From the NCBI GenBank assembly GCA_052326585.1, contig JBKQLU010000044.1, positions 9,299-73,298 on the forward strand: 64,000 nucleotides of DNA. The letters run 5' to 3'. Of the stretch, positions 2,859 to 27,059 are shown in pieces (positions within the stretch are counted from its first letter, which is position 1; every line of letters starts with the position of its first letter). A program made the position numbers and the translations under genes. The DNA is from Desulfobaccales bacterium. Its GTDB lineage: Bacteria > Desulfobacterota > Desulfobaccia > Desulfobaccales > 0-14-0-80-60-11. A model generated the notes under the pieces. It had not been told where the DNA came from. It worked only from the letters and a program-made list of their open reading frames with translations, and made no database searches.

Positions 2859-4067
2859 TCAGGAGGTGCTCTCCGTTTCAACTGCCACGCAGATTTCATC
2901 GCTCGCCAGGGCCAGACGCGAGCTACAGATGCCGGCCACTACCGAAATGACCCCCATGACGAAGAAGCCGGCCATAAACGTGCCGCTGATATCCACCAGT
3001 TTGCCGATAATGGGGGGCAGCGCCATAACCCCAAATGATCCCCAGGTATTGACGAATCCCATGGCCAGACCAGGGTTGACCGGGCAGCTATCCTTGGCCC
3101 CGTTGAAGATCCCGGCAAAAGGCAAGCCGGCCATCATGCCGGTAAAGATGATTGCCAAAAGAGCCATGAGCACCCAGGCCGACAGCCCGATCAGGATATA
3201 GCCCAGGCCCAGCCCGATGCCCGAGTAAATTAACAGCTTTTTCGAGGTAAGAAAACCATGATCCAGGATATAGCCCCCCAAGGGGCGGGAGAAGATTCCC
3301 AACAGCAGCACAACTGAGCCGATCATGCCGGCGGTGGTCGGCACCAGGTGCAGGCTCTTGATTAATAGCGTATTAACCCAGACGCCAGCCGAAATGATGG
3401 TGCCGAAACTGGCCAGTTGCGCCAGAGAAAGAATCCAGATATTGCGGCTGCCTATGACTTTGCCCCATTCAATTTTGGCTACCTTCCCGGTGATGGGGGT
3501 TTTGGGGGCGAAAAACAACCAAAAGACGAAGAAGACCGCGGCCAGGCCGCCGGTGATAAAGAAGACGCCGTGCCAGCCGGCGGCCTTCATCAGTTGCGGT
3601 ATGCCATAGATGACGAATCCGGCGCCCAAGAGGATCGAACCACCGTAAACCCCCTGGGCCCGCTGAATCTCCTTGCCGGCAAAAAAGGTGGGGACATAAC
3701 GCAAACCGCCGACGATGGCCGAACCGGTGCCGATGCCGACGATGAATTTCCACACCAGGATCTGGGTGTAACTATTGGAAAATCCGATAAAGATATTGCC
3801 TGCGGCAATAATCAGGATACCGATGCTGCAAATGTTCTTGGCCCCGAACTTGTCGGAAAGCGCCCCGCCGGGTATCTGTAAGGCCCCGTGGGCCAAAAAG
3901 ATGGCCGTAGTAAATAATCCGGCCATGGCATAGGTTATGTTTAAATCTTTGACCAGGGTCGGCACCAGGGGGCCGTGGTTGGTATAGTTGACCGCGAGAA
4001 TAAAACCCAGGAAAGAGATATAGGTTAAGGCCTTCCATCTCTGTGCCCAGAATAGTTCCATCTCCAT
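2859..4067 (-). CDS. MFS transporter
   Basis: 402-aa ORF, about 12 hydrophobic segments, with the MFS loop motif GALSDKFGAKN after TM2. Confidence 0.8.
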   Translation of the reverse strand: MEMELFWAQRWKALTYISFLGFILAVNYTNHGPLVPTLVKDLNITYAMAGLFTTAIFLAHGALQIPGGALSDKFGAKNICSIGILIIAAGNIFIGFSNSYTQILVWKFIVGIGTGSAIVGGLRYVPTFFAGKEIQRAQGVYGGSILLGAGFVIYGIPQLMKAAGWHGVFFITGGLAAVFFVFWLFFAPKTPITGKVAKIEWGKVIGSRNIWILSLAQLASFGTIISAGVWVNTLLIKSLHLVPTTAGMIGSVVLLLGIFSRPLGGYILDHGFLTSKKLLIYSGIGLGLGYILIGLSAWVLMALLAIIFTGMMAGLPFAGIFNGAKDSCPVNPGLAMGFVNTWGSFGVMALPPIIGKLVDISGTFMAGFFVMGVISVVAGICSSRLALASDEICVAVETESTS

Positions 4068-4330
4068 GGCTTTCCCCTTCTAATCCGAGATTATGCGGCT
4101 CACCTTGGCCACCACAGTCGAAAAATAGTTTGCTAACCTCCCCTGCCCGGTTCAATCCGGAATAGCATTACGCTTGGTTGGAGTTAGGCCGGGCTGAGGC
4201 GATCCCGGAAAAGAACCACCTTCGAACCTGAGAGGGAAACCGGAATAAATATTGGACAACAGAAATAGAGTGGAGACTTCCCGGGACGGTTTTCCGGACA
4301 GGGCTCCACCAAGACGGATTCCTCACATCT

Positions 4331-4427
4331 GGGGCGGTCCAGGCCTGGCAGCCGGTTTAGGTTCATATGATGAACGCCGCTTCTTTATTCGATTAATAGA
4401 CGAACGAGTTTGCCCTTGTCAAGGAAA
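4331..4427 (-). promoter_or_regulatory. Promoter/operator module copy 2 (upstream of the MFS-LUD operon). Same -35/-10 arrangement and inverted repeat GTTCAT-N3-ATGAAC (4361-4375).
   Basis: Aligns almost base for base with 2040-2137. Confidence 0.6.
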
Positions 4428-4500
4428 ACTTGGGTGAGATTTGCCGGTATTGGATCCAAGGGCGTCCCTGGTCTCCAGTTCAACCCGCTGGATAAACGGA

Positions 4501-4533
4501 AACAAAAAAGGCAGGGCCATGACTGCCCTTGCC
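4501..4533 (-). terminator. Rho-independent terminator (minus strand) of the type found after PEP-CTERM genes elsewhere in the window
   Basis: The minus strand reads GGCAAGGGCAGTCATGGCCCTGCCTTTTTTGTTTCC. This is nearly the same as the terminator at 43150-43185 (GGCAGGGTCAGCCATGGCCCTACCTTTTTTGTTTCC). Confidence 0.6.
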
Positions 4534-4537
4534 TTGA

Positions 4538-4636
4538 CTATTTGCCGAGATGGAAAATCTGCTTAAGCCTTCCTGCCCCCCATCCTACCAGACCCAGGAT
4601 GCAGGAACCGAAGAGAAGCAGAGAGGGGGGAGAGGA
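4538..4636 (-). pseudogene. Orphan PEP-CTERM sorting-signal fragment (C-terminal tail only)
   Basis: My minus-strand translation gives ...SSPPSLLLFGSCILGLVGWGAGRLKQIFHLGK*. It resembles the tail VPLPPSLLLLGSGLLGMAGFGWRRRKA of the gene at 54965-55600. There is no upstream gene body, start codon or signal peptide. Confidence 0.4.
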
Positions 4637-4760
4637 ACGGTACAGGCGTCTCGCACCAAGAACATGAGGCCGTTCTAGTCCTCGTCGGGAGATAAGTTAT
4701 ATAAATATCATTTTTATATGAATAAGTTACCCTATAATTAATAACTGCAGGAAAAATATC

Positions 4761-4788
4761 TTGACAGTAGAAATTGATGTGTTATAAG
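4761..4788 (+). promoter_or_regulatory. Putative sigma70 promoter for the grd-like operon (TTGACA, 16 nt, TATAAG)
   Basis: Hexamers read directly from the sequence in an AT-rich intergenic region. A leader of about 260 nt follows. Confidence 0.45.
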
Positions 4789-5049
4789 ATTTTTTTAAAT
4801 CATGCAGTGTGTTAACTTCTTACACTCTGCGTAATACACCCCATGAAAATGCAAAACAGATAACAGTGAGGTAGATGAGCCTAAGATTTTCACCTTAGAA
4901 GGCAGTTGAAAAATTAGCTAATGTAGGTCGCGTTTGGCCACAAAAGATGCTGAAATCTGGACCGATAAAGCTTGGCAAGGAAAGTCACGGAGATGTCGCT
5001 CTCGGAAGTGGTAATGGACCGTCAACCCTTACGCAAAGGAAGGAGAATT

Positions 5050-5235
5050 ATGGCAGCGAGGACAGGTGAGAAGGCCGGTGCAGATCCGAAGTTTCAAGAC
5101 ATGTTGCTGCAGGCCGGCTTTGAGTTGGGTTTTCTGGACCTGCAGGCCATCAAGTATTGGTGGGATTCGGATTTCGAGAGTGTTGCAGAAGTCTCGAAAC
5201 ACGGGGGTGCACAAGCATGGCACGCTTGGAATTAG
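5050..5235 (+). CDS. Small hypothetical protein (61 aa)
   Basis: Strong RBS (AAGGAAGGAGAATT-ATG). The sequence is MAARTGEKAGADPKFQDMLLQAGFELGFLDLQAIKYWWDSDFESVAEVSKHGGAQAWHAWN. It overlaps the grdE-like start by 19 nt. I recognise no family. Confidence 0.35.
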   Translation: MAARTGEKAGADPKFQDMLLQAGFELGFLDLQAIKYWWDSDFESVAEVSKHGGAQAWHAWN

Positions 5236-6488
5236 GTTCCTTTATTGTCCGGTCCGCCCGATTCGGAGACCGGACAGCTTATCGTGACGGCGTTCTCACC
5301 ATCGAGGATAAGGCGATACGAAGCCTGATCCTCCAGGACGGGCGAATCAAGGATGTTCAGCTCCACCTGGTATTCCCCGGGGATTCTGTCCGGGTAATCC
5401 GGGTATTGGATGCCATCGAACCGCTCTTTAAAGTGAGCGGTCCATCCTGTGCCTTCCCGGGATTCAATGGTCCGCCGCGCACCTGCGGCTCCGGCCGCAC
5501 CCACCGCCTCGAAGGTTTCACAGTAGTGGAGGTGGGGGACTTCCCTTTCCCGGCCAGCGGAGTTCATGCCTTTGAAGAAGGCATCATCGAGATGTCCGGA
5601 CCTGGTGCGGTTTATAGTGGCTGCTCCGATCGGGTCAACCTGTTGCTGGAATTTGTGCCGGGAGAGGCCTCCACTAATATGGAGTACGATGATGCCCTGC
5701 GTCGCGCCGCGCTGCGGGTGGCCGACTATTTGGCAGGGGCGACCCGGGAACTCACTCCTCCGCAAATGGAAATTTTCGGACTTGACCAAGAGACTGCGGG
5801 CCTGCCGCGGATTGTCTGGGTGCATCAGGTTCGGGCTCAGGGGCCGATGCTCCAGACCCATGTTTATGGCCACGAGTTCAGCGGCTGCCTGCCCACCATC
5901 CTGCATCCCAACGAAATGCTGGATGGAGCCGTCATTGGCTCAAATTACAAGATCGGCACCCGGACGCCTACTTTTCGGCATACCTGGCACCCCTCCCTCG
6001 TCGCCCTTTACCAGAGGCATGGCAAGGAGCTCAACTTCGGGGGGGTGATCATTTCCCGGGGCCACCATGAGACCGAATTTCTGAAGGAACGTTCGGCCCA
6101 GTTTGTAGCCAAGCTGGCAGGCATGCTCGGCGCGGACGGGGCTCTGTGCACCTACGAAGCGACCGGTAATACCCATATAGATTTCATGCTGACCGTCCAG
6201 GCCCTCGAAAAGACAGGGATTACCACCGGGATTGTCGTCCACGAGTACGGCGGGCCCGAAGGCAGGGACATTCCCCTGGTCGACTTCGTGCCCGAAGCCG
6301 TGGCCATGGCCAGCAGCGGGGGGATCGACCGGCGGCTGCAACTCCCACCCGTCGCCCGGGTGATTGGGGGAACCCACCTGGCGCACCGGGGCGAGCCAGC
6401 CCAGGGGGAACTCGATCTGCCGCTTCAGGAACTCTATGCCGCGACCATCGAGACCAACCAGCGCGGCGTTACGGCACAGGAGTATTGA
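5217..6488 (+). CDS. Glycine/sarcosine/betaine reductase complex component B, GrdE/GrdG/GrdI-like subunit
   Basis: From MARLELGSFIVRSARFG the protein is collinear with clostridial GrdE as I recall it. Shared blocks are VFPGDSVRVIRVLDAIEP..KV.GP, GRTH, EEGIIEMSGPGA, PTILHPNEMLDGAVIG and HGKELNFGGVII. I chose the start at 5217 rather than the ORF-track start at 5157. Confidence 0.8.
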   Translation: MARLELGSFIVRSARFGDRTAYRDGVLTIEDKAIRSLILQDGRIKDVQLHLVFPGDSVRVIRVLDAIEPLFKVSGPSCAFPGFNGPPRTCGSGRTHRLEGFTVVEVGDFPFPASGVHAFEEGIIEMSGPGAVYSGCSDRVNLLLEFVPGEASTNMEYDDALRRAALRVADYLAGATRELTPPQMEIFGLDQETAGLPRIVWVHQVRAQGPMLQTHVYGHEFSGCLPTILHPNEMLDGAVIGSNYKIGTRTPTFRHTWHPSLVALYQRHGKELNFGGVIISRGHHETEFLKERSAQFVAKLAGMLGADGALCTYEATGNTHIDFMLTVQALEKTGITTGIVVHEYGGPEGRDIPLVDFVPEAVAMASSGGIDRRLQLPPVARVIGGTHLAHRGEPAQGELDLPLQELYAATIETNQRGVTAQEY

Positions 6489-6490
6489 TC

Positions 6491-7798
6491 ATGCGCATTG
6501 TCCATTATCTGAATCAGTTTTTTGGCGGGATTGGCGGCGAAGACAAAGCGGACTTCCCTCCCCAAGCCAGGCCCGGAGCAATCGGTCCTGGCCAGGCCCT
6601 CCAGCACGCCCTGGGCGAGGAAGCCGAGATCGTGGGTACGGTGATCTGCGGAGACGGCCTCTTTGCTGACCACCTGGAGCAGACTGCTGCCGCGGTTCTC
6701 AAGCTGATCGCCGGATTTGCCCCCGACGTGGTTATTGCCGGGCCCGCCTTCAATTCCGGGCGCTACGGCCTGGCCTGCGGCCGGGTCTGCGCCGACGTGG
6801 TAAATCATCTCGGCAAGCCTACGGTCACCGGGATGTTCAAGGAAAATGCCGCGGTCGAACTCTATCGGAATTTACTAATCGTGCCGACCAGCGCCTCGGC
6901 CGTCGGCATGAAAGAAGCTCTTGCCGACATGGCTCGTCTGGCCTTGAAGCTTGGGCGCGGAGAACCCCTGGGCCCCGCGGCTGCCGAGGGCTATCTGCCT
7001 CGCGGCCAGCGGGTCAACGCGCTGGTGGCAGGATCCGCCTCCTCGAGGGCCCTCGATCTCCTCTTGGCCCGGGTAAATGGGCGTCCTTTCACCACCGAGG
7101 TCCCGCTGCCAAATTATGACAAAGTCCCCCCGCCTCCGCCGGTGCTCGATGCGGCGCGGCTGCGCCTGGCCGTGGTAACCGAGTCCGGGCTGGTCCCCAG
7201 CGGCAACCCTGACAAGCTGGAGTGGGTGCGCGCCTCAAAGTGGTTCAAGTATAGCATCGCAGGGAAGGATTCACTGAAGTCCGGTGAATACGAGGTGATC
7301 CACGGTGGCTATGATGCGGTGCACACTCTCGCCGATCCTAACCGGATGGTCCCGGTGGACGCCCTGCGGGAACTCGTCCGGCGCGGCGAGCTCGGTGAGC
7401 TTCTGGAATCATATTACGTGACCTGCGGGAATCACGGCATATTAAGCGAGATGGCCCAGCACGCCAGGGAGATCGCCGCGGACCTGCTGGCTCAGAAGGT
7501 GGGGGCGGCCTTGCTGGTTGCCACCTGAGGGTCGGGAACTCGTAGCGGTGCTACGATGGGAAAAGAGTTGGAAAGAGCGGGCCTGCCCACAGTGACGGTA
7601 ACCAGCTTGACCGCGGTGGCGCTCAAGGTTGGCGCCAACCGCGTCCTCCGGGGGACTCGTTTCAGTTGTCCCTGCGGCAACCCGGCCCTCTCTGAAAAAG
7701 ACGAGAAGGCCTGGAGGATCAAATTCGCCAGGTCAATCATAAAAGCTCTTCAGACTAAGGTTGACGGGCCTACCCTGTTCGAACCGGAGGCCATGTGA
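6491..7798 (+). CDS. Selenoprotein B of a glycine/sarcosine/betaine-type reductase (GrdB/GrdF/GrdH family). The in-frame UGA at 7526-7528 is read as selenocysteine.
   Basis: ORFs 6485-7528 and 7556-7798 are in the same frame, separated only by TGA plus 9 sense codons. The joined protein has the GrdB hallmarks VHYLNQFFGGIGGEDKAD, ICGD, AGPAFNSGRYGLACG, HGGYD and LLVAT-U-GSGTRSGATMGKELERAGLP...GNPAL. RBS AGGAG lies 7 nt before ATG 6491. Confidence 0.85.
7529..7556 (+). promoter_or_regulatory. Candidate bacterial SECIS hairpin downstream of the UGA codon
   Basis: TCGTAGC-GGT-GCTACGA (7540-7556) is a 7-bp stem with an apical loop beginning GG. The loop starts 18 nt after the UGA. Confidence 0.55.
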
Positions 7799-8052
7799 TG
7801 ATACAGGTAGCCGCCCCTGGCGGGAAGGCCTGCCAGTTAGCACTGAGAAGCGTGCGGCGAAGACAAGGCAGATACGGGCTTGTCGTGAAGGAAGGCGCCG
7901 TAGGCCCCGGCATGGCTCTTCAAAAAGAGCTGAATGGCAAGGCTGAAATTGGAGCTACCCTAATCTGTGGCGACAATTACTTTTTCCAAGATCCTGAAAA
8001 AGGAGGAGAAGAAGGGCTCAAACTCATTGAGCTTTATCAACCGGATATATAG
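7795..8052 (+). pseudogene. Decayed N-terminal fragment of a second grdB-like gene
   Basis: The ORF encodes ...KEGAVGPGMALQKELNGKAEIGATLICGDNYFFQDPEKGGEEGLKLIELYQPDI*, which matches GrdB residues around 25-80. The preceding GEDKAD block (7853-7870) is in another frame and is preceded by stops. The fragment stops where the PAFN..GRYG block should follow. Confidence 0.55.
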
Positions 8053-8066
8053 GGAAGACAGATGTT

Positions 8067-9479
8067 ATGGTTAATTCGACCCATATAATTGGCATGGTGA
8101 TCACGTTATTAATAATTGCCGGCTTTGGTTTTTATGCTGGAACCAGAATTAATGACGAAAAAGACTATGCGGGCAGCTCCCGTAAAGCAGGGACGACAGT
8201 TGTTGTTGGGACTATTCTGGGGACCCTGGTTAGCGGTAACTCTACTATTGGTGCTGCACAATTAGCGTTCTTATACGGTATGGACGGTTGGTGGTTTTCT
8301 CTGGGAGGAGGGATCGCTTGTTTGGTTTTGGCGATTTTTGTGCTCAAGCCCATCTATTCAAGCAAAATAACCACCCTACCCGAGTATCTGGTCAAGACTT
8401 ACGGTTATAAAATCGGACCCATTTCCAGTATTTGCAGTAGTTTTAGCATATTCTTTAATGTTGTGGCAAACGGTCTGGCAGCCGTAGCCCTGATAACTAC
8501 AGTAACTCATGTCAGTCCTACTTTTGCTGTGATTCTTACTCTGGTGGTATCGCTAGTCTATGTCATGGCTGGAGGAATTCAGGGGACTGGTATTGTCGGC
8601 GCGGTCAAAATGGCGCTACTTTTATTAGCAATGACGGTTGCAGGCGGGATTTCTCTTTACAAGTTCGGCGGAATCAGTGCTATGTATCACGCTTTTCCAA
8701 ACCCTTTCCCCTGGTTTTCCCTGTTTGGCCGCGGAGTTTCAAAGGACCTGGCGGCTGGATCGTCCCTGGTGCTTGGGGTCCTCTCTACCCAGATCTATAT
8801 TCAAGTTATTTCATCAGCCAAGACTATCGGCAAAGCCCGCACGGGCTTATTGCTCTCAGCATTTCTTAGTCCAGTGGTTGGTGTTGGCGGCGTCCTGGTG
8901 GGATTGTATATGAGGGCGCAGGTGGCAAGTTTCCCCGGCTTGGAATCGGCCTCAGCCAATGTTTTACCGACTTTCATTCTGCATTATATGCCACCCCTTT
9001 TCGGTGGCATAATCTTAGCCACCCTGTTTATTGCGACGATCGGAGGCATAGCTGGTATGAACCTCGGCATTTCGACTAATCTCACCCGTGACATCTACGT
9101 ACCGTATATTGCCAAGGGAGCCGATTATAAAAGGGATCTGTGGGTGCAACGCATGTTGGTACTTGGTCTTTGTGTTATCTGCGTAGTTTGCGTCAATAGC
9201 AGCCTGGGTAGCGTGATTCTGAGCTTCGGCTTCCTAGGACAGGGATTGAGGGCTTGTTGTGCCTTCTTTCCGCTCCTGGGAGCCATGTTCTTTAGACGCT
9301 TGGTTACCCCGGCGGCTGGCATAGCGGCGGTGATATTGGGACCAATAACTAATTTTTTATGGCACACCTTTGATCCGCAGGGTATGGATTCGCTCTATCC
9401 CGGACTTATGGCCAGTATGGTTGCTCTAATTGGAATCAGTGTGGCCACCCGCATGCTCGCCCACAAGAGTGAGGCGTGA
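8067..9479 (+). CDS. Sodium:solute symporter family (SSF) transporter
   Basis: 470-aa polytopic membrane ORF with an SSF-like N-terminal organisation. G+C is lower than in the flanking genes, by eye. Confidence 0.75.
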   Translation: MVNSTHIIGMVITLLIIAGFGFYAGTRINDEKDYAGSSRKAGTTVVVGTILGTLVSGNSTIGAAQLAFLYGMDGWWFSLGGGIACLVLAIFVLKPIYSSKITTLPEYLVKTYGYKIGPISSICSSFSIFFNVVANGLAAVALITTVTHVSPTFAVILTLVVSLVYVMAGGIQGTGIVGAVKMALLLLAMTVAGGISLYKFGGISAMYHAFPNPFPWFSLFGRGVSKDLAAGSSLVLGVLSTQIYIQVISSAKTIGKARTGLLLSAFLSPVVGVGGVLVGLYMRAQVASFPGLESASANVLPTFILHYMPPLFGGIILATLFIATIGGIAGMNLGISTNLTRDIYVPYIAKGADYKRDLWVQRMLVLGLCVICVVCVNSSLGSVILSFGFLGQGLRACCAFFPLLGAMFFRRLVTPAAGIAAVILGPITNFLWHTFDPQGMDSLYPGLMASMVALIGISVATRMLAHKSEA

Positions 9480-9625
9480 CCTGCCCCCCCAAAATGGATC
9501 AGTTTTTGAGGGGCGGGTCAACGAGACCATGAACGTTTTCAAGGGGTACAACACGGTAAATAAGGAAGAACTGAGGGCTTTGGTGGGGGAAATCCGGTAA
9601 GGATATTCACCTATATTCACCAGGA

Positions 9626-9668
9626 CAAAAAGAGGGGTTGGCTGAAAGAGCCAACCCCATGTTTTTTC
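9626..9668. terminator. Bidirectional Rho-independent terminator
   Basis: GGGGTTGGCT-gaaag-AGCCAACCCC is flanked by an A-run and a T-run. It lies between the symporter and tRNA-Asn. Confidence 0.7.
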
Positions 9669-9744
9669 TGGCTCCCCGGGACGGACTCGAACCGCCGACC
9701 AAGTGGTTAACAGCCACCCGCTCTACCAGCTGAGCTACCGGGGA
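9669..9744 (-). tRNA. tRNA-Asn (anticodon GUU)
   Basis: Hand-folded cloverleaf. Acceptor is UCCCCGG/CCGGGGA, anticodon loop CUGUUAA, T-loop GGUUCGAGUCC, with an encoded CCA. Confidence 0.9.
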
Positions 9745-9758
9745 GTGATGTTTGCTGC

Positions 9759-9832
9759 TGGCTGGGGGACCAGGATTCGAACCTGGATAGGCAGATCCAG
9801 AGTCTGCAGTCCTGCCGTTAGACGATCCCCCA
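9759..9832 (-). tRNA. tRNA-Gln (anticodon CUG)
   Basis: Hand-folded cloverleaf. Acceptor is UGGGGGA/UCCCCCA, anticodon stem GCAGA/UCUGC with loop CUCUGGA, T-arm CCAGG-UUCGAAU-CCUGG, with an encoded CCA. Confidence 0.9.
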
Positions 9833-9985
9833 GCGGATAAGCACCATTTTTTATATGAAGTTGGCGGGGCTTTGTCAAGAAGTCCATGCTGCCGCGGCGG
9901 ATGCGGCGCCATATCGGCCGGTATGCAGTCTGGCCTTTCTGGATCCAGGTTATTGCTTTAGCGGCAATCTTGGCCCCGGGGGCTA

Positions 9986-10405
9986 TCAGCGCACGATCAG
10001 GACACTGCACGGGGCGTGGCGGCTCACCTTTTCCGCGGTGGTGCCCAGCAGGGCCCAGACTCCGGAAAGGCCGCTGTGGCCCACCACGATCAGGTCAAAG
10101 CCGCCCTCCCGGGCCACCTCGAGGATGGTCTTGGCCGGGTGGCCTGGGCGCATCACGGTCTTCAGGTCTATGCCAGCCTCTTGCGCCCGGCTGCCCGCCG
10201 ATTTCAAGAGTTTGCCATACTGTCCATTGGCAAACTCCTTCTCTTCCTGCACTTCATCGATAGTACCGGCGAACCTGGGTAAGCGCTCCTGCACCGCCAA
10301 GGCGGCCAGCTCCGCCTGGTAAACTTTGGCTAAATTAACCGCCGCTTCCAGGGCTCTATTGGCCCCATCAGAGCCATCATAGGCCACCAAAACTTTCTTG
10401 TACAT
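9986..10405 (-). CDS. Universal stress protein (UspA family)
   Basis: 139 aa: MYKKVLVAYDGSDGANRALEAAVNLA...DLIVVGHSGLSGVWALLGTTAEKVSRHAPCSVLIVR, the classic Usp pattern. Confidence 0.85.
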   Translation of the reverse strand: MYKKVLVAYDGSDGANRALEAAVNLAKVYQAELAALAVQERLPRFAGTIDEVQEEKEFANGQYGKLLKSAGSRAQEAGIDLKTVMRPGHPAKTILEVAREGGFDLIVVGHSGLSGVWALLGTTAEKVSRHAPCSVLIVR

Positions 10406-10529: not shown

Positions 10530-11777
10530 TCAATCTTCGGGCATGTGCAGGAAATGTTCCGAGGTGCCCCGATACTGGGAAGAATCTTTTCCGGGGGAGC
10601 CCGCCTTACCGGGGTAGAACCAGATTTGCCCCACCAGGGTGGGAATCACCGCCGAGCCGATGACCGCCGCCACCAATAAGGAATACTGCGCCTGGGTTAT
10701 GTATCCATAGTTGAGGCCAAAGAGCGACGCGATGCTGCCAAAGGTCAGGCCGGTGCACATCATGCAGGTGGTGTAATTGACCTCCCGAGGCGCCATCCCA
10801 AATAATCGGCAGGTCGGCCAGACCCCGATAAACTTGGTGATCATCTTTGCCAAAAACAGGGCCAGCAAGACCCCGAACCCGGCTATCAAGGCAGGCAAAG
10901 ACACCAGGGTCCCGGCCTTGAGAAAGAAGAACGGCGTCAGCAAGGCAAAAACGATGGAGCGCAGGCGCAGCATGATCGCTTTATTGTGGACAAATAAGCC
11001 CGCCACCACTATGCCGAAAATATAAGCCGGCAGCACGGCCTCGCTGCGTGCTTTGACCGCCAGGGCGCCCAGGGCGCAAAGGACCAGAAAGATGAATTTT
11101 ATTTCCGGTTCGCTCACGCGGCCGCCCCACCAGGCGAAGACCCGGCGGCTCAAGGCGGGGAGGACAACCAGGACCAACGCCGTCACCACTACAAAGATCA
11201 CCAGCCAGTAGTCGTAGTTGGCGAAGATGAGGCCCAGGGCCAGCACCGTGCCCAGGTCGTTGACGAAGCAGGCGGCCAGGATGAGCTTACCCAAGTCCGT
11301 CTGGTTGAGCCCGGTCTCCACCATGACCGCATAGACCACCGCCATGGAGGTGGTGGACAGGGCGATGCCCGCAATCTGGGAGGCCTGGAGACTCCATCCG
11401 GCAACGTAATAGGCATAAGCCATGCATCCCAGAAATGGACCCAAGAAGGCGATGATGCCGATGGTCAGGGTAGGTTTTAACTGTTTGCGGAAGGTTGCCG
11501 GCTCGAGCTCGGCCCCGGCCAGGAAGGTGAGGACTACCGAACCAAAGCCGGCCAGGAAGTTGATCCAGGCATTGGGCTGAAAGAGGGCGACACCGAAATG
11601 GGCCCCGCAGTTGCCGGCCACAAAACCCAGGAAGATCTCCACCAGGGCCACGGAAATGCCAATGCGGATCGAGATCAGGCTGGCCAGGAAGGCCAACCCG
11701 ATCCAGGCCGTCGCACTGTACCACACTTGCTCCACGATATGCTCCTCCGGCGATCTTGAGGCGGGCGCTACATACAA
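10530..11777 (-). CDS. Cation:proton antiporter (Na+/H+ exchanger, CPA family)
   Basis: 415-aa polytopic ORF with Na_H_exchanger-like segments (ALVEIFLGFVAGN, FLAGAELE). The start codon is uncertain. Confidence 0.75.
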   Translation of the reverse strand: MYVAPASRSPEEHIVEQVWYSATAWIGLAFLASLISIRIGISVALVEIFLGFVAGNCGAHFGVALFQPNAWINFLAGFGSVVLTFLAGAELEPATFRKQLKPTLTIGIIAFLGPFLGCMAYAYYVAGWSLQASQIAGIALSTTSMAVVYAVMVETGLNQTDLGKLILAACFVNDLGTVLALGLIFANYDYWLVIFVVVTALVLVVLPALSRRVFAWWGGRVSEPEIKFIFLVLCALGALAVKARSEAVLPAYIFGIVVAGLFVHNKAIMLRLRSIVFALLTPFFFLKAGTLVSLPALIAGFGVLLALFLAKMITKFIGVWPTCRLFGMAPREVNYTTCMMCTGLTFGSIASLFGLNYGYITQAQYSLLVAAVIGSAVIPTLVGQIWFYPGKAGSPGKDSSQYRGTSEHFLHMPED

Positions 11778-12096
11778 AAAGCCCCTGATCGCCTAAGCTG
11801 ATCAGGAGCCATTAGTGTCATCACGGTTCGGGCAGATTATCCTTCGCCCCGGCGGACTCCATCGCCTAATCTGGGGATAATTTAACCCCGGTCCCCAGCC
11901 CGGTCAAGGAAAATGTACCATAATTCACAATCACCCCTCTTTTAGGGTTGACATCCTGGCCCTATTGAAGGAATAATCTATCCTGCGACGGCGATGAAGT
12001 CCGCCTGAACTGTTCGCGGTAGCCCGCGGGCTGATGACTTCTGCTCTCATTTAAGGGGCAGAAGTTTTTTTATGCTGCTCATGACCGGGAGAAGGT

Positions 12097-13866
12097 ATGG
12101 GAGTCTACCGGGAACTGAAGGAAGACCTGGAAGGGGAGCTGGGCCGGCTGGCCGCGCTGCCTGAAGTGCGGGGGGCGCTTCTCACGCAACTGCTGGACAA
12201 GTTGCGGCAAAACCGCTTCAATCTGGTGGTCCTGGGCGCCTTTAAACGGGGGAAAAGCACCCTGATCAACGCCTTGCTGGGTGAGGCCGTGCTGCCCACC
12301 TCCATCATTCCCCTAACTTCGGTGGTTACCATCCTGGGTTACGGCGAACACCTGGAGATCCGCGTCCTTTTTCAAAACGGCCAACGCACCGTCATCACCC
12401 GGGGGGAATTAGCGGCTTATATCACCGAGAAGGGCAATCCCAGGAACCATAAGGGGGTGCGGGAGGTGGAGATCACCTATCCCACAGATTATCTTCGGGA
12501 CGGGGTGCGCATCATCGACACCCCGGGGGTGGGCTCGGTCTATAGTCACAACACGGAAGTCGCTTATAATTATCTCCCCCGGGTGGACGCCGCCGTCTTC
12601 GTGACTGCCGTGGACCCGCCGCTGTCCGCCGCCGAAGAGGCTTTCTTGAAGGATATCCGGGAATATGCCCACAAGCTCTTCTTCGTTTTGAATAAGATCG
12701 ACTATGTGGCCGAGCCTGAGCGGCAGGAGGCCCTGGACTTTACCGCTGAGGTCCTGCGCGGCGCCCTGGCCGCCCCAAGGGTGCTGATCTTTCCCCTCTC
12801 CGCCAAGCTGGGCCTGGAAGGCAAGGCCGACGGCGGCTCTGCGGCCTTGACGGCCAGTCTCCTCCCCGAATTTGAGGATCACCTGCGAGGGTTTCTTTAT
12901 CAGCAAAAGGGCCGGGTATTGCTGATTTCTTGTATCAACAGGGCCCTGAAGGCCCTGAATGACTCCACCCTGGCCCTCACGGTGGAACGCCAGGCCAGCG
13001 CCATCCCTCTTAATGAGCTGGAGGAGAAGATTGCCCGCTTCAGCCAGGAATTGCAGGGACTGGAGAAGGAACGGGAGATGTCCCTCTTGCTCTTGGAGGG
13101 GAGAGTCAAAGGGCTGGTGGCGGAGTTGAGCCGCGACCTGGAAGCCTTTAAGCGGGAAACCGGCGTCCGGCTGCGCCGGGAAGTGGAAGCCGAGTTCCAG
13201 CGCCAGAGCCGCCTGGCCCTCGACCTGCGCCAGGAGATGGAAGGGTACCTGTTCGCCGCGCTGCGGGATATCTTCCTAGATTGGCGGGTCGGTGAGGTCG
13301 AGAAACTGGCGCGGTCGCTGGCCGACACCCAGCAGGAGTTCGCCGCCCGGATAAACGGCATCCTGGAGCGCCTGACCCAACTGACGGCGCGCATCTTTGA
13401 CTTTCCCCTGCCGGGTTTTGCGGCCGCGGAGACCCTCACGGAAAAGAGCCGCTTCGGATTCAAATTTAAAGATGAACCGGTGGGCCTGGAGATCCTGCAA
13501 ATGACCGTGGCTTCTTTGCTCCCCCGGGCCCTCACCAAGGGCCTGCTGCTCAAGAAGCTTCTGGAGAACGTCGCTGAATTGGTGGATAAGCATTGCGGCC
13601 GCCTGCGTTACGATTTCCAGCAGCGGCTCCAGGAGTTGACCCGAGATTTCCGGAAAGACTGGCTCTCCCGGATCGATGACACCACCCAAGGCATTCGGCA
13701 GGCGCTGGAGCGGGCCAGGGCCCAGAAGCGCAGCAGCACCCAGGCAGCGGCGCGGCGGGCCGGAGAAATGGAGCAAAGATTAACCGAAATCTCCCGCGGC
13801 GAGGGGGCGTTATTGGGATTGAAGACCCGGGTGGAAAAGTCCCTGCCTGGGTCAAGTAATATTTGA
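12097..13866 (+). CDS. Dynamin-family GTPase (bacterial dynamin-like protein)
   Basis: P-loop context NLVVLGAFKRGKSTLINALLG, G3 motif IIDTPGVGS, NKID motif, and a long coiled-coil-like C-terminal half. Confidence 0.75.
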   Translation: MGVYRELKEDLEGELGRLAALPEVRGALLTQLLDKLRQNRFNLVVLGAFKRGKSTLINALLGEAVLPTSIIPLTSVVTILGYGEHLEIRVLFQNGQRTVITRGELAAYITEKGNPRNHKGVREVEITYPTDYLRDGVRIIDTPGVGSVYSHNTEVAYNYLPRVDAAVFVTAVDPPLSAAEEAFLKDIREYAHKLFFVLNKIDYVAEPERQEALDFTAEVLRGALAAPRVLIFPLSAKLGLEGKADGGSAALTASLLPEFEDHLRGFLYQQKGRVLLISCINRALKALNDSTLALTVERQASAIPLNELEEKIARFSQELQGLEKEREMSLLLLEGRVKGLVAELSRDLEAFKRETGVRLRREVEAEFQRQSRLALDLRQEMEGYLFAALRDIFLDWRVGEVEKLARSLADTQQEFAARINGILERLTQLTARIFDFPLPGFAAAETLTEKSRFGFKFKDEPVGLEILQMTVASLLPRALTKGLLLKKLLENVAELVDKHCGRLRYDFQQRLQELTRDFRKDWLSRIDDTTQGIRQALERARAQKRSSTQAAARRAGEMEQRLTEISRGEGALLGLKTRVEKSLPGSSNI

Positions 13867-15557: not shown

Positions 15558-17081
15558 CTACGAGCCTCCCTGGCCGTTTTTGATGCGCTGGATGAGGTTC
15601 GAGACCGATTCGGGTTCGGTGACCGGCAGGAGCCGGACCTCCCCGCCGTAAGCCTGGACGATCTCCCGCCCGGCCACCTGGGCCTCCGGATAATTGCTCC
15701 CCTTGGTAAGGACGTCCGGTTTGAGGCCGGCCAGGACTTCCGGCAGCCGGGGGCTTTCAAACAGGATGACGTAGTCCACCGCTTCCAGGGCCGCCAGGAT
15801 GCGCAAGCGTTGAGCGGCGCCGATGACCGGGCGGCCCTCCCCTTTTACCAGCCGCACCGAGGCGTCGCTGTCGAGGGCCACCACCAGGAGGTCTCCCAGG
15901 CGCCGGGAATCCTCCAGGAACTTGATGTGGCCGGCATGGAGCAGGTCGAAGCAGCCGTTGGTGAAGACCACCTTGCGGCCCTGGGCCTGGAGATGGGCCA
16001 CCTTGAGGCCCAATTCGGCCAACCCCAGGATCTTATCCTCCAGGCCGGCGGCCCGGCGTCCCAACTCCCGCTCCAACTCCGCCCGGAAGATGGGGGCGGT
16101 GCCCACCTTGCCCACCACCACGCCGGCGGCGACGTTGGCCACCGCGGCGGCCAGCGCCGGGTTGCCCCAGGAGGCCAGCCCCAGGGCTACGACCGCGGCC
16201 ACGGTGTCCCCGGCCCCGGAGACGTCGAAGACCTCCTGGGCCCGGGTGGGGATGTGCAGCTCCGGGCCTTGCCGGGGAAAGAGGAGCATGCCCTCGGCCC
16301 CCAGGGTAATCAGCAGATGGTCCAGGTCCAGGTCCTCCCGGAGTCCGGCTCCGCTGCGGACCAGGTCCTCCCAGCGGGACAGGGAGCGGCCGGCGGCCAG
16401 TTCCGCTTCCTGGCGGTTGGGGGTGATGACCGTGGCCCCGGCGTAACTGGAGAAATCCGGCCCCTTGGGGTCCACCACCACCGGCGTCCCCTGACTGCGC
16501 CCCCGCCTGATGACCTCCTGCAGCAATGGGGCGGTGAGGGCCCCCTTGGCGTAATCGGACAGGACGATGGCGGAGAGCCGGGGCAGGCGGTCCTGGAGAA
16601 AACCGGCGGCCGCCGCCAGGAAATCCGGGCCGGCCGGGCGGCGGGATTCCCGGTCGATGCGCACCACCTGCTGGGTGTTGCCCATGACCCGGGTCTTGCG
16701 GGAGGTGCGCCGCTCAGGGTCGGCGAAGAGGCCGGCGTCATCCACTCCCAGCCGCTCAAGCTCCCGGCGCAACAGGCTGCCGGGATGGTCGTCGCCCACC
16801 AGTCCCAGGACTTCCACCCGGGCCCCCAGGGCCACCAGGTTGTTGACCACGTTGCCGGCGCCACCCAGGGTGCGGGTTTCCCGCTCCACGTCCACCACCG
16901 CCACCGGCGCCTCCGGGGAGATGCGCGCCACCCGCCCCCAGAGGTACTCGTCCAGCATGAAATCCCCGGCCACCAGGACCCGCAGGCTGGAGAAGCCGGA
17001 GAGGTCCAGGCGCCGCAACTCCTCGCCCAAACCCGAATCTGCGCTACTGCCGCCTGACTGGCTCTGGAACACTGCCGGCAC
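15558..17081 (-). CDS. hldE: Bifunctional D-beta-D-heptose 7-phosphate kinase / D-beta-D-heptose 1-phosphate adenylyltransferase
   Basis: The N-terminal half is a PfkB-type kinase (VLVAGDFMLDEYLWGRV.RISPEAPV, GAGNV). The C-terminal half is a cytidylyltransferase (VVFTNGCFDLLHAGHIKFLE). Confidence 0.9.
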   Translation of the reverse strand: MPAVFQSQSGGSSADSGLGEELRRLDLSGFSSLRVLVAGDFMLDEYLWGRVARISPEAPVAVVDVERETRTLGGAGNVVNNLVALGARVEVLGLVGDDHPGSLLRRELERLGVDDAGLFADPERRTSRKTRVMGNTQQVVRIDRESRRPAGPDFLAAAAGFLQDRLPRLSAIVLSDYAKGALTAPLLQEVIRRGRSQGTPVVVDPKGPDFSSYAGATVITPNRQEAELAAGRSLSRWEDLVRSGAGLREDLDLDHLLITLGAEGMLLFPRQGPELHIPTRAQEVFDVSGAGDTVAAVVALGLASWGNPALAAAVANVAAGVVVGKVGTAPIFRAELERELGRRAAGLEDKILGLAELGLKVAHLQAQGRKVVFTNGCFDLLHAGHIKFLEDSRRLGDLLVVALDSDASVRLVKGEGRPVIGAAQRLRILAALEAVDYVILFESPRLPEVLAGLKPDVLTKGSNYPEAQVAGREIVQAYGGEVRLLPVTEPESVSNLIQRIKNGQGGS

Positions 17082-17228
17082 CGCTCCTCGCGTCGTAATC
17101 TGGGTCCAGGCAAGGCATAGGCTCAGGGGACATTCCCCAGCAAGGGTTGGGGAACGAGAAACCGAAGGCCCAAACCTGGCCGGACCCCAGTGCGGGTACT
17201 CTCCGGAAACGCCCCGGGAACGCCTGGG

Positions 17229-18563
17229 TTATTGGCCGTTCCCCGGCTGGCCGATGTAAAAGTACTTGAACCCCAGCTTGGCCATCTTATCGGCCTGATA
17301 AAGGTTACGGCCGTCGAAAATTACCGGGCTCTTCAGCAGGGATTTGATCCGGTCGAAGTCCGGCTCCCGGAACCGGGCCCATTCGGTACAGATGATGAGG
17401 GCATCGGCACCCTGCAGGGCCTCATAGCTGGAGGCCGCGAAACTGACGGCCGGCTGGTCCCCCAGGTATTGGCGGGTGGCCGCGATGGCCTCGGGATCGT
17501 GGGCCTGCAGGCGCGCCCCGGCCGCCGCCAGGCTGGCAATGAGGGCCAGGGCCGGGGCCTCCCGAATGTCGTCGGTCTGAGGTTTAAAGGAGAGGCCCCA
17601 CAGGGCAAAGACCTTCCCCTTGAGATCCCCATGGTAATAAGCCGCGATGCGCTCCGCAAAGATGCGGCGCTGCTCCTGGTTGACGGCCTCCGCGGCTTCC
17701 AGGATGCGGGGGGTGTAGCCCCGGGACCTGGCGGTGTGGATCAGGGCCTGCATGTCCTTGGGGAAACAGGAACCGCCATAGCCCAGTCCCGGGAACAGGA
17801 AGAGGGGCCCGATGCGGCGGTCGGAGCCGATGCCCTGGCGGATCATTTTGATATCGGCGCCGGTGCGGCTGCAGATGTTGGCCATTTCGTTGATAAAGGA
17901 AATCTTGGTGGCCAAAAAGGCGTTGGCGGCGTACTTGGTAAGTTCAGCGGAAACCACGTCCATGACGATGATGGGGGCGTTGGTGCGCACGAAGGGTGCA
18001 TAGAGCTCCCGCATCAACTCTCCCACCCGGACATCATCGCAGCCCACCACCACCCGGTCCGGCTTCATGAAGTCGTCCAAGGCGGTGCCTTCCTTGAGAA
18101 ATTCCGGGTTGGAGACTACGTCAAATTCCAGGACCTGGCCCCGGGCGGCCAGCTCCTCCCGGATGACCTGGCGCACCTGGACTGCGGTGCCCACCGGCAC
18201 CGTGGACTTCTCCACGATCACCTTGTAGCCGTTCATGTGGCGGCCGATTTCCCGGGCCACCTGGAGGACCATGGAAAGGTCGGCCGAGCCGTCCCGGTCC
18301 TGGGGCGTGCCCACCGCGATGAAGCAGAGCAGGCTCTGCTGCACCGCCGTGGCCAGGTCGGTGGTGAAGCTCAGGCGCTGGTCCTGGACATTGCGCTTGA
18401 CATAATCCTCCAGCCCCGGCTCGTAAATGGGGATGCGCCCCTGTTCCAGAGCCTCCACCTTGGCGACCGCCGCGTCCACCAAAATGACGTTATTACCCAT
18501 TTCGGCGAAGCAGGCCCCGGTCACCAGACCGACATAGCCTGCCCCGATGATGGCCAATTTCAT
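17229..18563 (-). CDS. ugd: UDP-glucose 6-dehydrogenase
   Basis: MKLAIIGAGYVGLVTGACFAEMG Rossmann start, catalytic GGSCFPKD block, 444 aa. Confidence 0.9.
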   Translation of the reverse strand: MKLAIIGAGYVGLVTGACFAEMGNNVILVDAAVAKVEALEQGRIPIYEPGLEDYVKRNVQDQRLSFTTDLATAVQQSLLCFIAVGTPQDRDGSADLSMVLQVAREIGRHMNGYKVIVEKSTVPVGTAVQVRQVIREELAARGQVLEFDVVSNPEFLKEGTALDDFMKPDRVVVGCDDVRVGELMRELYAPFVRTNAPIIVMDVVSAELTKYAANAFLATKISFINEMANICSRTGADIKMIRQGIGSDRRIGPLFLFPGLGYGGSCFPKDMQALIHTARSRGYTPRILEAAEAVNQEQRRIFAERIAAYYHGDLKGKVFALWGLSFKPQTDDIREAPALALIASLAAAGARLQAHDPEAIAATRQYLGDQPAVSFAASSYEALQGADALIICTEWARFREPDFDRIKSLLKSPVIFDGRNLYQADKMAKLGFKYFYIGQPGNGQ

Positions 18564-18834
18564 TTAAGGTTACCTCCCTGGGAATTCTCAGGCGGTCGTT
18601 GACTGGACCGTTATAGTCCGGAATCCCAGCAGTCGTTCCCGGGCCTTGGGCCCACCCCTAAATTATGAGAAGACCGGTGGGCCGGGCCTGCCGCCCGTCA
18701 CGCAGTCCGCACCGGCGCACCCCGGTGCCCTAATTCTTCACCCGCTTTTCCGGGCGGATACCGCTCAAAGTTTTTAAATTTATCAGTTTGCCTAAAAAAA
18801 GCTATCGGCCCATACCCCGGCCGCAGACCTCTCA

Positions 18835-24523: not shown

Positions 24524-25309
24524 TTATCGGCCCTGATTCCAGTCAGGTATCACCTCCAGGGCATTGATGATGTGCTCTTGGAAAATTTTAATTACTCCCG
24601 GGTAATGCAGCAGGCCGGTGGGATCCAGGGTGACGGTCAGGCCGGCCTCTTGCAGAGCGGTTTGCCAGGAATTTTCCGGCCCGGCCAGATCTATCTTGAA
24701 ATGACGCCCCGCCACCATCATGAGGGGCAGCAACCGTATCCGCTTCAGGCCGGATTTGACCACCCGGGCGATGACCTCTTGCCGGGAAGGGGGGCCTTCC
24801 AGGACGCCGATGTGGACCTGGTGGCCGAACCGCCCGGATAACAGGTATTGCAGTGCCAGGTACGTGGCCCAACTGGGGTGATCGCTGCCATGTCCCACCA
24901 AGATGATGGCCTCCTCGCTCCCTAGGGCGTCCAGTTTAGGGGCCAGCGCTTCCAGAAAAGCACCATAATCCTCTGGAGCCCACAAGAGTGGTAGCCCCAT
25001 GGCCGTCCGTATCCCGCAGGCATGCACCTCTTCCACCAGGCGATAAAATTCGTGCCCGGCCATGAGATGCAAGGCCTGCACCACCGCCCATTCAAAACCC
25101 CGGGCCTGCAATTCCTCCAGTAGTTCTCCCGGACCTTTCCACTTCCGCCCCCGGCGCTGTTGGTCAAAGTCCCGCACCATACGGGAAGAGAAGGCCCAAT
25201 GAACTTCATGTGCAGGGAAGGCTGTCCGGATGTGTGTATCCAGGTAAGTATAAGACTGCCGGGCTGAGGTGGTGGTGCCGAAGGCTACCAGAACTATGGG
25301 GACTTTCAT
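24524..25309 (-). CDS. cbiK: Sirohydrochlorin cobaltochelatase (anaerobic cobalt chelatase CbiK)
   Basis: 261 aa: MKVPIVLVAFGTT..., later ILVGHGSDHP and LLPLMMVAGRHF blocks typical of CbiK. Confidence 0.8.
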   Translation of the reverse strand: MKVPIVLVAFGTTTSARQSYTYLDTHIRTAFPAHEVHWAFSSRMVRDFDQQRRGRKWKGPGELLEELQARGFEWAVVQALHLMAGHEFYRLVEEVHACGIRTAMGLPLLWAPEDYGAFLEALAPKLDALGSEEAIILVGHGSDHPSWATYLALQYLLSGRFGHQVHIGVLEGPPSRQEVIARVVKSGLKRIRLLPLMMVAGRHFKIDLAGPENSWQTALQEAGLTVTLDPTGLLHYPGVIKIFQEHIINALEVIPDWNQGR

Positions 25310-25384
25310 GATTTCATCTCTATGATCATTTTATTCCCGGCCTTCGGGCATCACATCTTTTATTAACATTCTAATTTCAAACAC

Positions 25385-26260
25385 CTAACCATTGTTGTCC
25401 AGATTCCGTTTCGTCTTGCCTGGGCCATTTATAAAGCAGACTTCTTCCAGCACATGCCTTGCCTGTCCGATGGTGAGCGGAAGGCGTTCCGCTTCCAGAC
25501 AGCCTTGCTTCCTGAGTATTTCAATCAAATGGGCAACCCTGGGCAGCCGCAGGCCGATCTTTCGGATAATATCCTTCTGGGCGAACACCTCCGCCGTGCT
25601 ACCCGAAAGGATGATTTCTCCTGCATTCATCAGATAAACCCGATCCGCCAACAGTGGGATGATATCTGCATCGTGGGAAGAGAATATCAGCGTGATGCCC
25701 ATTTCCTTGTTGATTTTGTTGAGCAGCCCCACGAGACTGCTTGCGCCTTGGGGATCAAGCGCGGCAGTTGGCTCATCCAATACGAGTACGTCGGGCTTCA
25801 TGGCAAGAACGCTGGCCAGAGCGACTCTTTTCTTCTCCCCCTGGCTCAGATTGAGCGGGCTCTTCTCGCTGTAGCCACATATGCCCACGGCCTCGAGAGC
25901 CCAATTGACCGCATGGTCCAGCTCCTTTCCGGTGACCTGCATATTCATTAGCCCATAGGCCACTTCCTGGCGCACGCTTGCATTGAAAAGCTGGTCATCC
26001 GGATCCTGGAAAACCATCCCGACCTTGGCGCGTATCCGATATAAGTTCTTTTTTTCAACCAACAGTCCGTCAACATAAACCCTGCCGGAGGAGGCCAGTA
26101 AAAGGCCATTAAAGGTGTTAAACAGCGTAGATTTTCCTGCACCGTTCGGTCCAATCACCGCAATCCGTTCGCCTCTTTCGATTTTCAGGCTCACTTGACG
26201 GAGTGCTACGAATCCGCCCGCATATGTGTAGCAAACCTCCTGGACATCGATAAGGCTCAT
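25385..26260 (-). CDS. cbiO: Cobalt ECF/ABC transporter ATP-binding protein CbiO
   Basis: Walker A GPNGAGKST, signature LSQGEKKRV, Walker B VLVLDEP. Operon position is after cbiQ. Confidence 0.85.
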   Translation of the reverse strand: MSLIDVQEVCYTYAGGFVALRQVSLKIERGERIAVIGPNGAGKSTLFNTFNGLLLASSGRVYVDGLLVEKKNLYRIRAKVGMVFQDPDDQLFNASVRQEVAYGLMNMQVTGKELDHAVNWALEAVGICGYSEKSPLNLSQGEKKRVALASVLAMKPDVLVLDEPTAALDPQGASSLVGLLNKINKEMGITLIFSSHDADIIPLLADRVYLMNAGEIILSGSTAEVFAQKDIIRKIGLRLPRVAHLIEILRKQGCLEAERLPLTIGQARHVLEEVCFINGPGKTKRNLDNNG

Positions 26261-26274
26261 TGCTGTTTCCTCTC

Positions 26275-27054: not shown

Positions 27055-27059
27055 CGTTA

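Follow-up and report, generated by a model that had tools for sequence, protein, structure and literature searches.

The analysed stretch of DNA, called the window in the following, comprises 64,000 nucleotides (nt) of contig JBKQLU010000044.1 of a Desulfobaccales bacterium. It contains an operon of three genes, which encode a GrdE-like protein, a GrdB-like selenoprotein and a symporter of the sodium:solute symporter (SSF) family. GrdE and GrdB are known as the two subunits of the substrate-specific protein B of glycine reductase. An initial annotation had described a coupled grdE-/grdB-like gene pair followed by a grdB-like remnant and a symporter gene, and all of these were recovered in place by matches to Pfam and TIGR models. 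The GrdE-like protein is covered near full-length by PF09338 (Gly_reductase; 357 bits, E 1e-106, cut-off 22). The GrdB-like protein is matched by PF07355 (GRDB; 423 bits, cut-off 22) and, over residues 1-431, by TIGR01918 (453 bits, cut-off 65). For both subunits the matches are full length, above the curated thresholds and far beyond chance expectation. The two genes are separated by a gap of only 2 nt, and an AGGAG is located 9 nt 5' of the second ATG.

Table 1. Features of the operon and its borders, with positions in the window.
Feature	Position	Strand	Remarks
Candidate sigma-70-like promoter, TTGACA-18-TAAGAT (-35/-10)	4761..4790	+	In the AT-rich 1.15-kb intergenic region 5' of the operon
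Left edge of DNA homology	5188..5216	+	Last ~30 nt of the relatives' molybdopterin-oxidoreductase gene and ribosome-binding site; rearrangement scar
grdE-like gene, 423 aa	5217..6488	+	ATG 5217, stop TGA 6486-6488; predicted unprocessed alpha-type subunit of protein B
grdB-like selenoprotein gene, 435 aa including Sec346	6491..7798	+	Final stop TGA 7796-7798; translationally coupled to the grdE-like gene
In-frame UGA, predicted selenocysteine codon	7526..7528	+	Homology runs on past the UGA to residue 431-435
SECIS hairpin, (U)CGUAGC-GGU-GCUACG(A)	7540..7556	+	Begins 12 nt past the UGA
Frameshifted GrdB N-terminal pseudogene fragment (~70-85 residues)	7847..8052	+	Rearrangement scar, within ORF 7795-8052
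SSF sodium:solute symporter gene, 470 aa	8067..9479	+	PF00474, 91 bits; last gene of the operon
Terminator-like hairpin, 10 bp (7 G-C) and T-run	9634..9658	+	Between symporter gene and convergent tRNA-Asn

The in-frame UGA of the grdB-like gene is predicted to be a selenocysteine (Sec) codon. TGA is present at this position in all 77 distinct sequences of homologous loci, and each of them carries a hairpin CGUAGC-GGN-GCUACG 12 nt 3' of the UGA. In this selenocysteine insertion sequence (SECIS) element, which the initial annotation had overlooked, the six core pairs are 100% paired in the 77 sequences and two of them covary (U-A/C-G/U-G and A-U/U-A). The Rfam model SECIS_4 was matched at 7535-7566 with 31.1 bits (E 4e-4), which is under its gathering score of 38. 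The stem is built by the codons of the protein motif T-R-[S/C]-G-A-T in the related loci (L008-L086). Whenever the Ser of the motif is exchanged for Cys in these loci (AGC to UGC), the Ala codon changes synonymously from GCU to GCA, by which the base pair is preserved. Since the second change compensates the first, evolution of the protein motif is coupled to the RNA structure in grdB.

For the cleavage site of the GrdE-like protein, 150 family representatives were aligned with MAFFT, namely the best-scoring clusters at 50% identity retrieved with a profile of the clade. Asn243-Tyr244 of the window protein is located on the canonical Asn-Cys of the G-N-C-V-S-A-C-D-K group, so that the processing Cys is absent, as the initial annotation had concluded from an alignment by eye. 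In GrdE of Clostridium difficile, the pyruvoyl group was mapped to residue 242 (PMC9908766). Judged from the alignment, the GrdE-like subunit cannot form a pyruvoyl group because it lacks the cleavage-site Cys, and substrates which require a Schiff base, like glycine and sarcosine, are therefore improbable for the window pair. The pyruvoyl-forming Cys was found in only 6-7 of the 150 best-scoring representatives, and N-Y is the commonest state. N-Y is also present in 15 of 16 sequences of a further alignment (A1) and in almost every one of ~75 loci compared. The N-C group forms its own small clade in a neighbour-joining tree, with 29-35% identity to the window protein. This group scores highest on the curated GrdG model, with 391-631 bits compared to 262 bits for the window protein.

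The active-site motif of the B subunit is altered as well. UxxCxxC is given as the motif of GrdB in a review (PMC13188914). The corresponding stretch of the window protein is V-A-T-U-G-S-G-T-R-S-G, in which both Cys residues are gone; this loss was likewise missed by the initial annotation. Across ~75 loci the state of the E-subunit site and that of the motif in the neighbouring B subunit covary. In the clade of the window, N-Y-[KR] is combined with T-U-G-[ST]-G-T-R-S-G, which contains zero Cys. In a second pair of genes, grdE2/grdB2, found in related genomes, S-S-N-Y-I-I-A-C-Q-K is combined with U-G-T-G-T-R-C (one Cys). Loci of the Firmicutes type combine N-Y-V-W-P-A-F-K with U-G-T-C-T-R-C, which has both. 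The combination of N-Y with a Cys-less B motif was observed in Desulfobaccales, Nitrospinota-like, Dehalococcoidia, Entotheonella-like, Rokubacteria and other loci. On the basis of these alignments, the two linked losses with retained Sec define a large, mostly non-clostridial and uncharacterised clade, and a literature search found no paper describing it.

The members of this clade were collected by searching proteins and by scanning a single genome from each species. The closest relatives of the window pair (87-93% protein identity) belong to Desulfobaccales metagenome-assembled genomes (MAGs). At 62-80% identity, pairs were found in MAGs of Thermodesulfobacteriota, Rokubacteria/Methylomirabilia, Burkholderiales, Gemmatimonadales, Acidobacteriota and Hydrogenedentota, and at 39-51% in Nitrospinota-like, Dehalococcoidia, Entotheonella-like and other MAGs.

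The six closest Desulfobaccales loci, one of them on the complete chromosome OY969108.1 (L011), contain the pair as part of a larger locus, parts of which vary by genome. In its fullest form, a Liv-type ABC transporter, a corrinoid protein, a URO-D-type methyltransferase, rhodaneses and a molybdopterin oxidoreductase are followed by the first pair, grdE1-grdB1. After grdB1 come a GntR regulator, an SSF symporter, a DASS transporter, grdE2-grdB2, grdC and grdA. Rhodaneses, first pair, SSF gene, grdC and grdA are present in all six loci, the GntR regulator at this position in three and the second pair in four; L010 has only a fragment of grdB2, and L022 is without a second pair. The products of grdE2 and grdB2 show 39% and 51% identity, respectively, to those of the first pair. 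The grdC product reaches 672 bits on the curated GrdC model (cut-off 450), and the grdA product, which has a C-F-V-U motif, 219 bits on the curated GrdA model (cut-off 130). The term stand-alone, used for the pair in the initial annotation, thus describes the window correctly but not the system, since its closest relatives are all linked to grdC and grdA and mostly to a second pair. L010 and L022 come from a single MAG and both contain a separate grdC-grdA, which makes a supply of both proteins in trans plausible. In L011, the grd locus is preceded at 4292-10001 by genes for a corrinoid-binding protein and a URO-D-type methyltransferase, and by those for a rhodanese with four domains and a molybdopterin oxidoreductase which looks cytoplasmic. 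The oxidoreductase gene is split over two frames, either by a frameshift or by a long-read sequencing error.

Linkage to grdA and grdC extends beyond the Desulfobaccales. Among 44 well-flanked loci, both genes were found within 10 kb in 22, grdA only in one (L086) and neither of them in 21. Complete genomes in which the pair stands alone are OZ240206.1 (Dehalococcoidia) and OY282375.1 (Entotheonella). Examples of grdC linked to grdA, with GrdC above the curated cut-off, are L001 (15000-16433) and L087 (8087-9505). The Nitrospinota-like MAGs show the gene order grdC-grdA-grdE-grdB. When the flanking open reading frames (ORFs) were clustered, grdC and grdA were the sole gene families which recur across phyla. 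The Pfam neighbourhoods (TctC, PrpD, HpcH, luciferase-like and others) are lineage-specific and so give no clue to the substrate. A grdD gene adjoins grdC only in three loci of the Firmicutes type and in one Acidobacteria locus (L050). No grdD was found in the flanks (up to 10 kb) of grdC-grdA in Nitrospinota-like, Burkholderiales and Thermodesulfobacteriota loci and in two Desulfobaccales loci out of six; in the remaining four the sequence ends shortly after grdA, so that grdD is possible there.

Some of the related loci show further peculiarities. On the complete Nitrospinota-like chromosome (L087), grdE and grdB are separated by ~1.9 kb (11285-13183) with two small ORFs beside a DNA methylase-like gene, an insertion into a pair which is tightly coupled elsewhere; large gaps between E and B were also seen in L030, L035, L037, L039 and L056. 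The Christensenellaceae locus L085, which is of the Firmicutes N-Y type, contains at 16124-19600 two large ORFs resembling selA and selB on inspection, together with a gene for tRNA-Sec (72 bits in Rfam). They are located directly 3' of grdC and a putative grdD, forming a self-contained selenoprotein island.

The window locus is without the rhodaneses, the GntR regulator, the second pair, grdC and grdA of its relatives. Searches with tblastn using GrdA, GrdC, GrdD and TrxB from related loci gave zero matches in the 64 kb. Pfam scans of 40 other larger ORFs of the window revealed none of grdA, grdC, grdD or the thioredoxin partner genes, in agreement with the initial annotation, and no sel genes were found in the window either. 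At the locus, DNA homology to the relatives is restricted to the pair and a divergent SSF gene. The blastn alignments with L008-L012 begin at window position 5188, 29 nt before the grdE-like start (locus position 9972; the upstream gene of L011 ends at 10001). They run to ~7800-7849, just past the stop codon of grdB, and are followed by a divergent SSF gene; the flanks are not syntenic. A further shift concerns FUR-katG, which is located directly 3' of grdA in L001 and L022 and ~37 kb from the pair in the window. Both window genes (46420-49266) were identified by DNA homology to the Pfam-annotated region of L001 (18131-21095; katG 96%, fur 80% identity) and not by Pfam scans of the window. At 49850-49927 the window contains an inverted 78-nt match to a transposase remnant of L001. 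Together with the displaced FUR-katG, this remnant points to a reshuffling of the neighbourhood mediated by insertion sequences. From these comparisons we read the window copy as a cassette of ~2.6 kb which was cut from a larger, complete locus, and its stand-alone state as a local accident.

Between grdB and the symporter gene lies the remnant already mentioned. Its ORF matches Pfam GRDB with 44 bits at profile positions 23-81, and the stretch GEDKAD is located in one frame and GPG...ICGD in another. The fragment is only ~46-48% identical to any GrdB recovered, including the N-termini of both the grdB1 and the grdB2 type, which suggests an old pseudogene piece and no recent duplicate. An origin of the locus as a tRNA-linked island was considered and rejected: the longest direct repeat of the tRNA-Asn/Gln region is a 13-mer at a distance of 9 kb, located beyond the tRNA genes as seen from the operon, and there is no integrase. 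A mosaic origin was also considered on account of base composition. The G+C content drops from ~61% to 49% between grdB and the SSF gene, but the same drop is present in the relatives and therefore tells nothing about mosaicism.

Despite the rearrangement, the window pair is intact and under purifying selection. The ratio of nonsynonymous to synonymous substitution rates (dN/dS) of the window genes is 0.12-0.19 against six relatives, compared to 0.13-0.15 between the relatives; these values are pairwise, so that the terminal branch cannot be isolated.

The symporter gene is the only transporter gene with conserved linkage to the pair and the only accessory gene whose linkage has outlasted the rearrangement. 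Its product shares 68% of its amino acids (76% of the nucleotides) with the SSF gene 3' of grdB1 in all six Desulfobaccales loci. Among the relatives themselves, the identity of the symporter to that of the reference locus L001 is 90-98%. The window protein scores far under the equivalog cut-offs for proline (PutP), pantothenate (PanF) and acetate (ActP). The initial annotation had named the symporter and the neighbouring Liv and MFS systems as candidate importers. The symporter is a probable importer, but the suggestion finds no support for the Liv and MFS genes, which are divergent from the pair and not syntenic with the relatives; the MFS gene (2859-4067) is located 1.15 kb away.

A candidate promoter and a strong terminator-like hairpin of the operon are listed in Table 1. 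Promoter-like -35/-10 sites are no more numerous than expected from shuffled sequence, and the promoter at 4761-4790 is accordingly weak evidence. Two convergent tRNA genes (tRNA-Asn/Gln region) follow 3' of the hairpin. At a permissive E-value, Rfam gave no riboswitch or leader in 4000-5216, nor upstream of the operon in 20 related loci. A small ORF at 5051-5235 has a good Shine-Dalgarno sequence but was rejected as a gene because it is not conserved and its 3' end is a leftover of the relatives' molybdopterin-oxidoreductase gene.

In comparison to the glycine reductase proteins GrdE/GrdB of Clostridium sticklandii, Eubacterium acidaminophilum and C. difficile, the window pair belongs to the same Pfam families and has the same gene order with tight coupling. 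Sec is located at the same position, a SECIS element follows directly 3', and sister genomes link the pair to genuine grdA and grdC. It differs by Asn-Tyr in place of Asn-Cys, by U-G-S-G-T-R-S in place of U-x-x-C-x-x-C, and by a neighbourhood without grdA, grdC, grdD, grdX and trxAB in a host which is a diderm relative of sulfate reducers. The models of known systems did not reach their cut-offs. For the GrdB-like protein, the scores were 437 bits with GrdB (TIGR01917, cut-off 602), 464 with GrdF (NF040794, cut-off 800) and 388 with GrdH (NF040795, cut-off 775). For the GrdE-like protein, they were 262 bits with GrdG (NF040793, cut-off 780) and 115 with FarE (NF053623, cut-off 675). The D-proline reductase models PrdA and PrdB (TIGR04480 and TIGR04483) gave 48 and 61 bits (cut-offs 700 and 300), which corresponds to distant homology only, and the architecture is different. 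N-Y is shared with grdE2/grdB2 and with the Firmicutes-type pairs (L079-L086), all of which are 39-51% identical to the window pair, so that loss of the pyruvoyl Cys is widespread in the family. The Firmicutes-type pairs occur with grdD, and trxB is near in L084 and L085.

FarB/FarE is the only described protein B pair which shares both losses with the window pair. These proteins of Cloacibacillus porcorum MFA1 reduce fluoroacetate, a substrate unable to form a Schiff base (PMC10838667). FarE is without the processing Cys and FarB without the CxxC beside Sec; the pair depends on GrdA, which is encoded elsewhere in the genome and induced alongside (PMC10838667). According to the FarE model score, FarB/FarE is an analogue and not an orthologue of the window pair. 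The operon structure E-B-SSF also differs from the far operon by the missing MFS antiporter gene farA and radical-SAM gene farC; Pfam scans of 50 window ORFs gave no radical-SAM gene.

From these data we consider, with a probability of roughly 0.6, that the grdE-like/grdB-like(Sec)/SSF operon encodes a functional substrate-specific protein B module together with a probable importer of its substrate. This assumption is based on the full-length family matches, the conserved Sec codon and SECIS element, the paired losses, the linkage to grdA and grdC, the selection, the precedent of FarB/FarE and the operon structure. In such a module, the selenolate of Sec346 would attack the alpha-carbon of a substrate of the type X-CH2-COO-, with a leaving group X which requires no Schiff-base activation. 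The carboxymethyl group would be handed to selenoprotein A (GrdA) and then to GrdC, thioredoxin serving as the reductant. Both of these partner proteins, GrdA and GrdC, would be supplied in trans, and the SSF symporter would import the substrate.

Several points weigh against this interpretation. With grdA and grdC absent from the window, the partners would have to come in trans, and dependence on protein A is not proven clade-wide since 21 of the 44 loci have neither gene. Canonical protein C requires both subunits, GrdC and GrdD. As grdD is rarely found beside grdC, the downstream chemistry may differ from the formation of acetyl phosphate. The rearrangement scars at the window locus are also compatible with early decay. 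Sequence searches of solved structures with both subunits, and with a profile of the E-subunit clade, revealed no relevant relative, and the assumption of enzyme activity across the clade is based on sequence comparison.

Other explanations for the locus were weighed. A protein B of an ordinary glycine reductase (GrdE/GrdB) or sarcosine reductase (GrdG/GrdF) would fit the observation that the GrdG and GrdF models are the top NCBIfam matches of the two proteins. However, the GrdG, GrdF and GrdB scores stay under their cut-offs, the N-C group is a separate small clade with 29-35% identity, and the Cys for the pyruvoyl group of the canonical Schiff-base mechanism is missing. Judged from the alignment, this explanation is already refuted at the defining residue and extremely improbable. 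A betaine reductase protein B of the GrdI/GrdH type, which converts glycine betaine to trimethylamine and a carboxymethyl-selenoether, would need no Schiff base. The alpha-type subunit GrdI is not a pro-protein and is without the processing Cys (PMC10838667), so that GrdI/GrdH of E. acidaminophilum and the window pair have an unprocessed alpha-type subunit and a substrate without Schiff base in common; the comparison was made by model score and description. In five of the six Desulfobaccales loci, genes for a corrinoid-binding protein and a URO-D-type methyltransferase, which could process a methylated amine, are located a few kb 5' of the pair, but they are missing from the window. The GrdH score is not only under its cut-off but also under the GrdF and GrdB scores, and none of seven diverse GrdB-type proteins from related loci reached the GrdH cut-off. 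Moreover, the transporter is of the SSF and not of the BCCT/OpuD type, no MttB-type gene was seen, and both Cys residues given for GrdB in the review are lost in the clade. A betaine reductase is thus unlikely, and only the second half of the suggestion in the initial annotation, a betaine-type or other reductase for substrates without Schiff base, finds support.

For a Far-like reductive dehalogenase of fluoroacetate or another haloacetate speaks that both active-site losses are shared with FarB/FarE, and the window contains fluoride riboswitches at 11796-11875 (-) and 11981-12050 (+), the first of which precedes a gene of the Na+/H+ exchanger family. The genes controlled by them, 1-2.6 kb 3' of the operon, would then handle the released fluoride. 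But fluoride riboswitches were found in none of 20 related loci, their adjacency is specific to the rearranged window, and two tRNA genes and a terminator lie between the operon and the riboswitch unit. The riboswitches are therefore treated as a coincidence of low weight. Considering also the FarE score and the missing farA-type antiporter and radical-SAM farC genes, a haloacetate dehalogenase is very unlikely. Finally, the pair could be an orphaned relic which has lost its partners (grdA, grdC, second pair, rhodaneses, GntR) by rearrangement and is non-functional but not yet visibly degraded. The confined homology to the relatives, the frameshifted GrdB fragment, the displacement of FUR-katG and the likewise decayed second pair of the sister locus L010 are in line with this. 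On the other hand, neither reading frame is disrupted, the UGA and the SECIS hairpin are preserved, the pairwise dN/dS values, in which the terminal branch is not isolated, give no sign of relaxation, and the related MAG with two sets of grdC-grdA makes a supply in trans plausible. We therefore consider a relic improbable and prefer the functional protein B module.

A broader assumption, which we put forward only tentatively and hold to be rather doubtful, concerns the whole clade. The pairs with N-Y and a Cys-less U motif may represent a distinct class of Sec enzymes which cleave the C-X bond of non-amine or quaternary substituted acetates without a carbonyl cofactor. Candidate substrates may be haloacetates, sulfonium or ammonium betaines, or others. 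Such enzymes would act with GrdA and GrdC but without GrdD, perhaps in half of the lineages even without proteins A and C, and would occur in groups not known for Stickland chemistry, namely Nitrospinota-like bacteria, Entotheonella, Dehalococcoidia, Rokubacteria and Desulfobaccales. The window copy would then be a working, symporter-fed member of this class.

Several other features were found in the window. Pfam scans identified LptD, an OprB porin and a TonB-dependent receptor with ExbB/ExbD/TonB, which indicate a diderm host, as the initial annotation had assumed; the affiliation of the closest relatives with the Desulfobaccales is consistent with this. Genes for cobalt uptake (CbiMNQO and CbiK) follow a cobalamin riboswitch, and other matches were ABC transporters, PanB, a LarA-like gene, hydantoinase A/B and amidohydrolases. 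The cobalamin riboswitch (28768-28955, -) is located 5' of an unannotated ORF of 151 aa, which is followed by the CbiM/N/Q/O and CbiK genes (24524-28729, -). On its other side lies the gene of the TonB-dependent receptor (29232-31463, -), beside ExbB/ExbD/TonB. The two fluoride riboswitches are arranged back to back and face divergent genes, one for the Na+/H+ exchanger family protein (10530-11777, -) and one for a dynamin-family GTPase (12097-13866, +). To our knowledge, dynamin-like GTPases are not known to be regulated by fluoride. Two riboswitches for cyclic di-GMP of the type c-di-GMP-I-GGC were detected at 43482-43556 and 54787-54866 (+). The first precedes a gene for a PEP-CTERM/DUF642 secreted protein (43727-44449), and the same arrangement is present in L022 (6930-7012). 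Three ORFs had no Pfam match (17190-18602, +, 470 aa; 9855-10322, +, 155 aa; 45286-46173, +, 295 aa).

Glycine-reductase-type enzymes are textbook Stickland enzymes of the Firmicutes with four or five known substrates. The clade described here is, from its sequence features, an uncharacterised variant of this known kind of enzyme. Because so few of the best-scoring E-subunit representatives retain the pyruvoyl Cys, most of the sampled family diversity seems to be without assigned chemistry. The window copy calls for caution, since a seemingly stand-alone pair can derive from a complete locus by rearrangement. The clade spans many uncultivated environmental phyla, and FarBE, which cleaves C-F bonds, is its sole described functional analogue. 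If the substrate of the clade were identified, selenium-dependent reductive cleavage of C-X bonds would become known from new organisms and for new compounds, and ideas on the roles of the CxxC motif and the pyruvoyl group in protein B would be put to the test.

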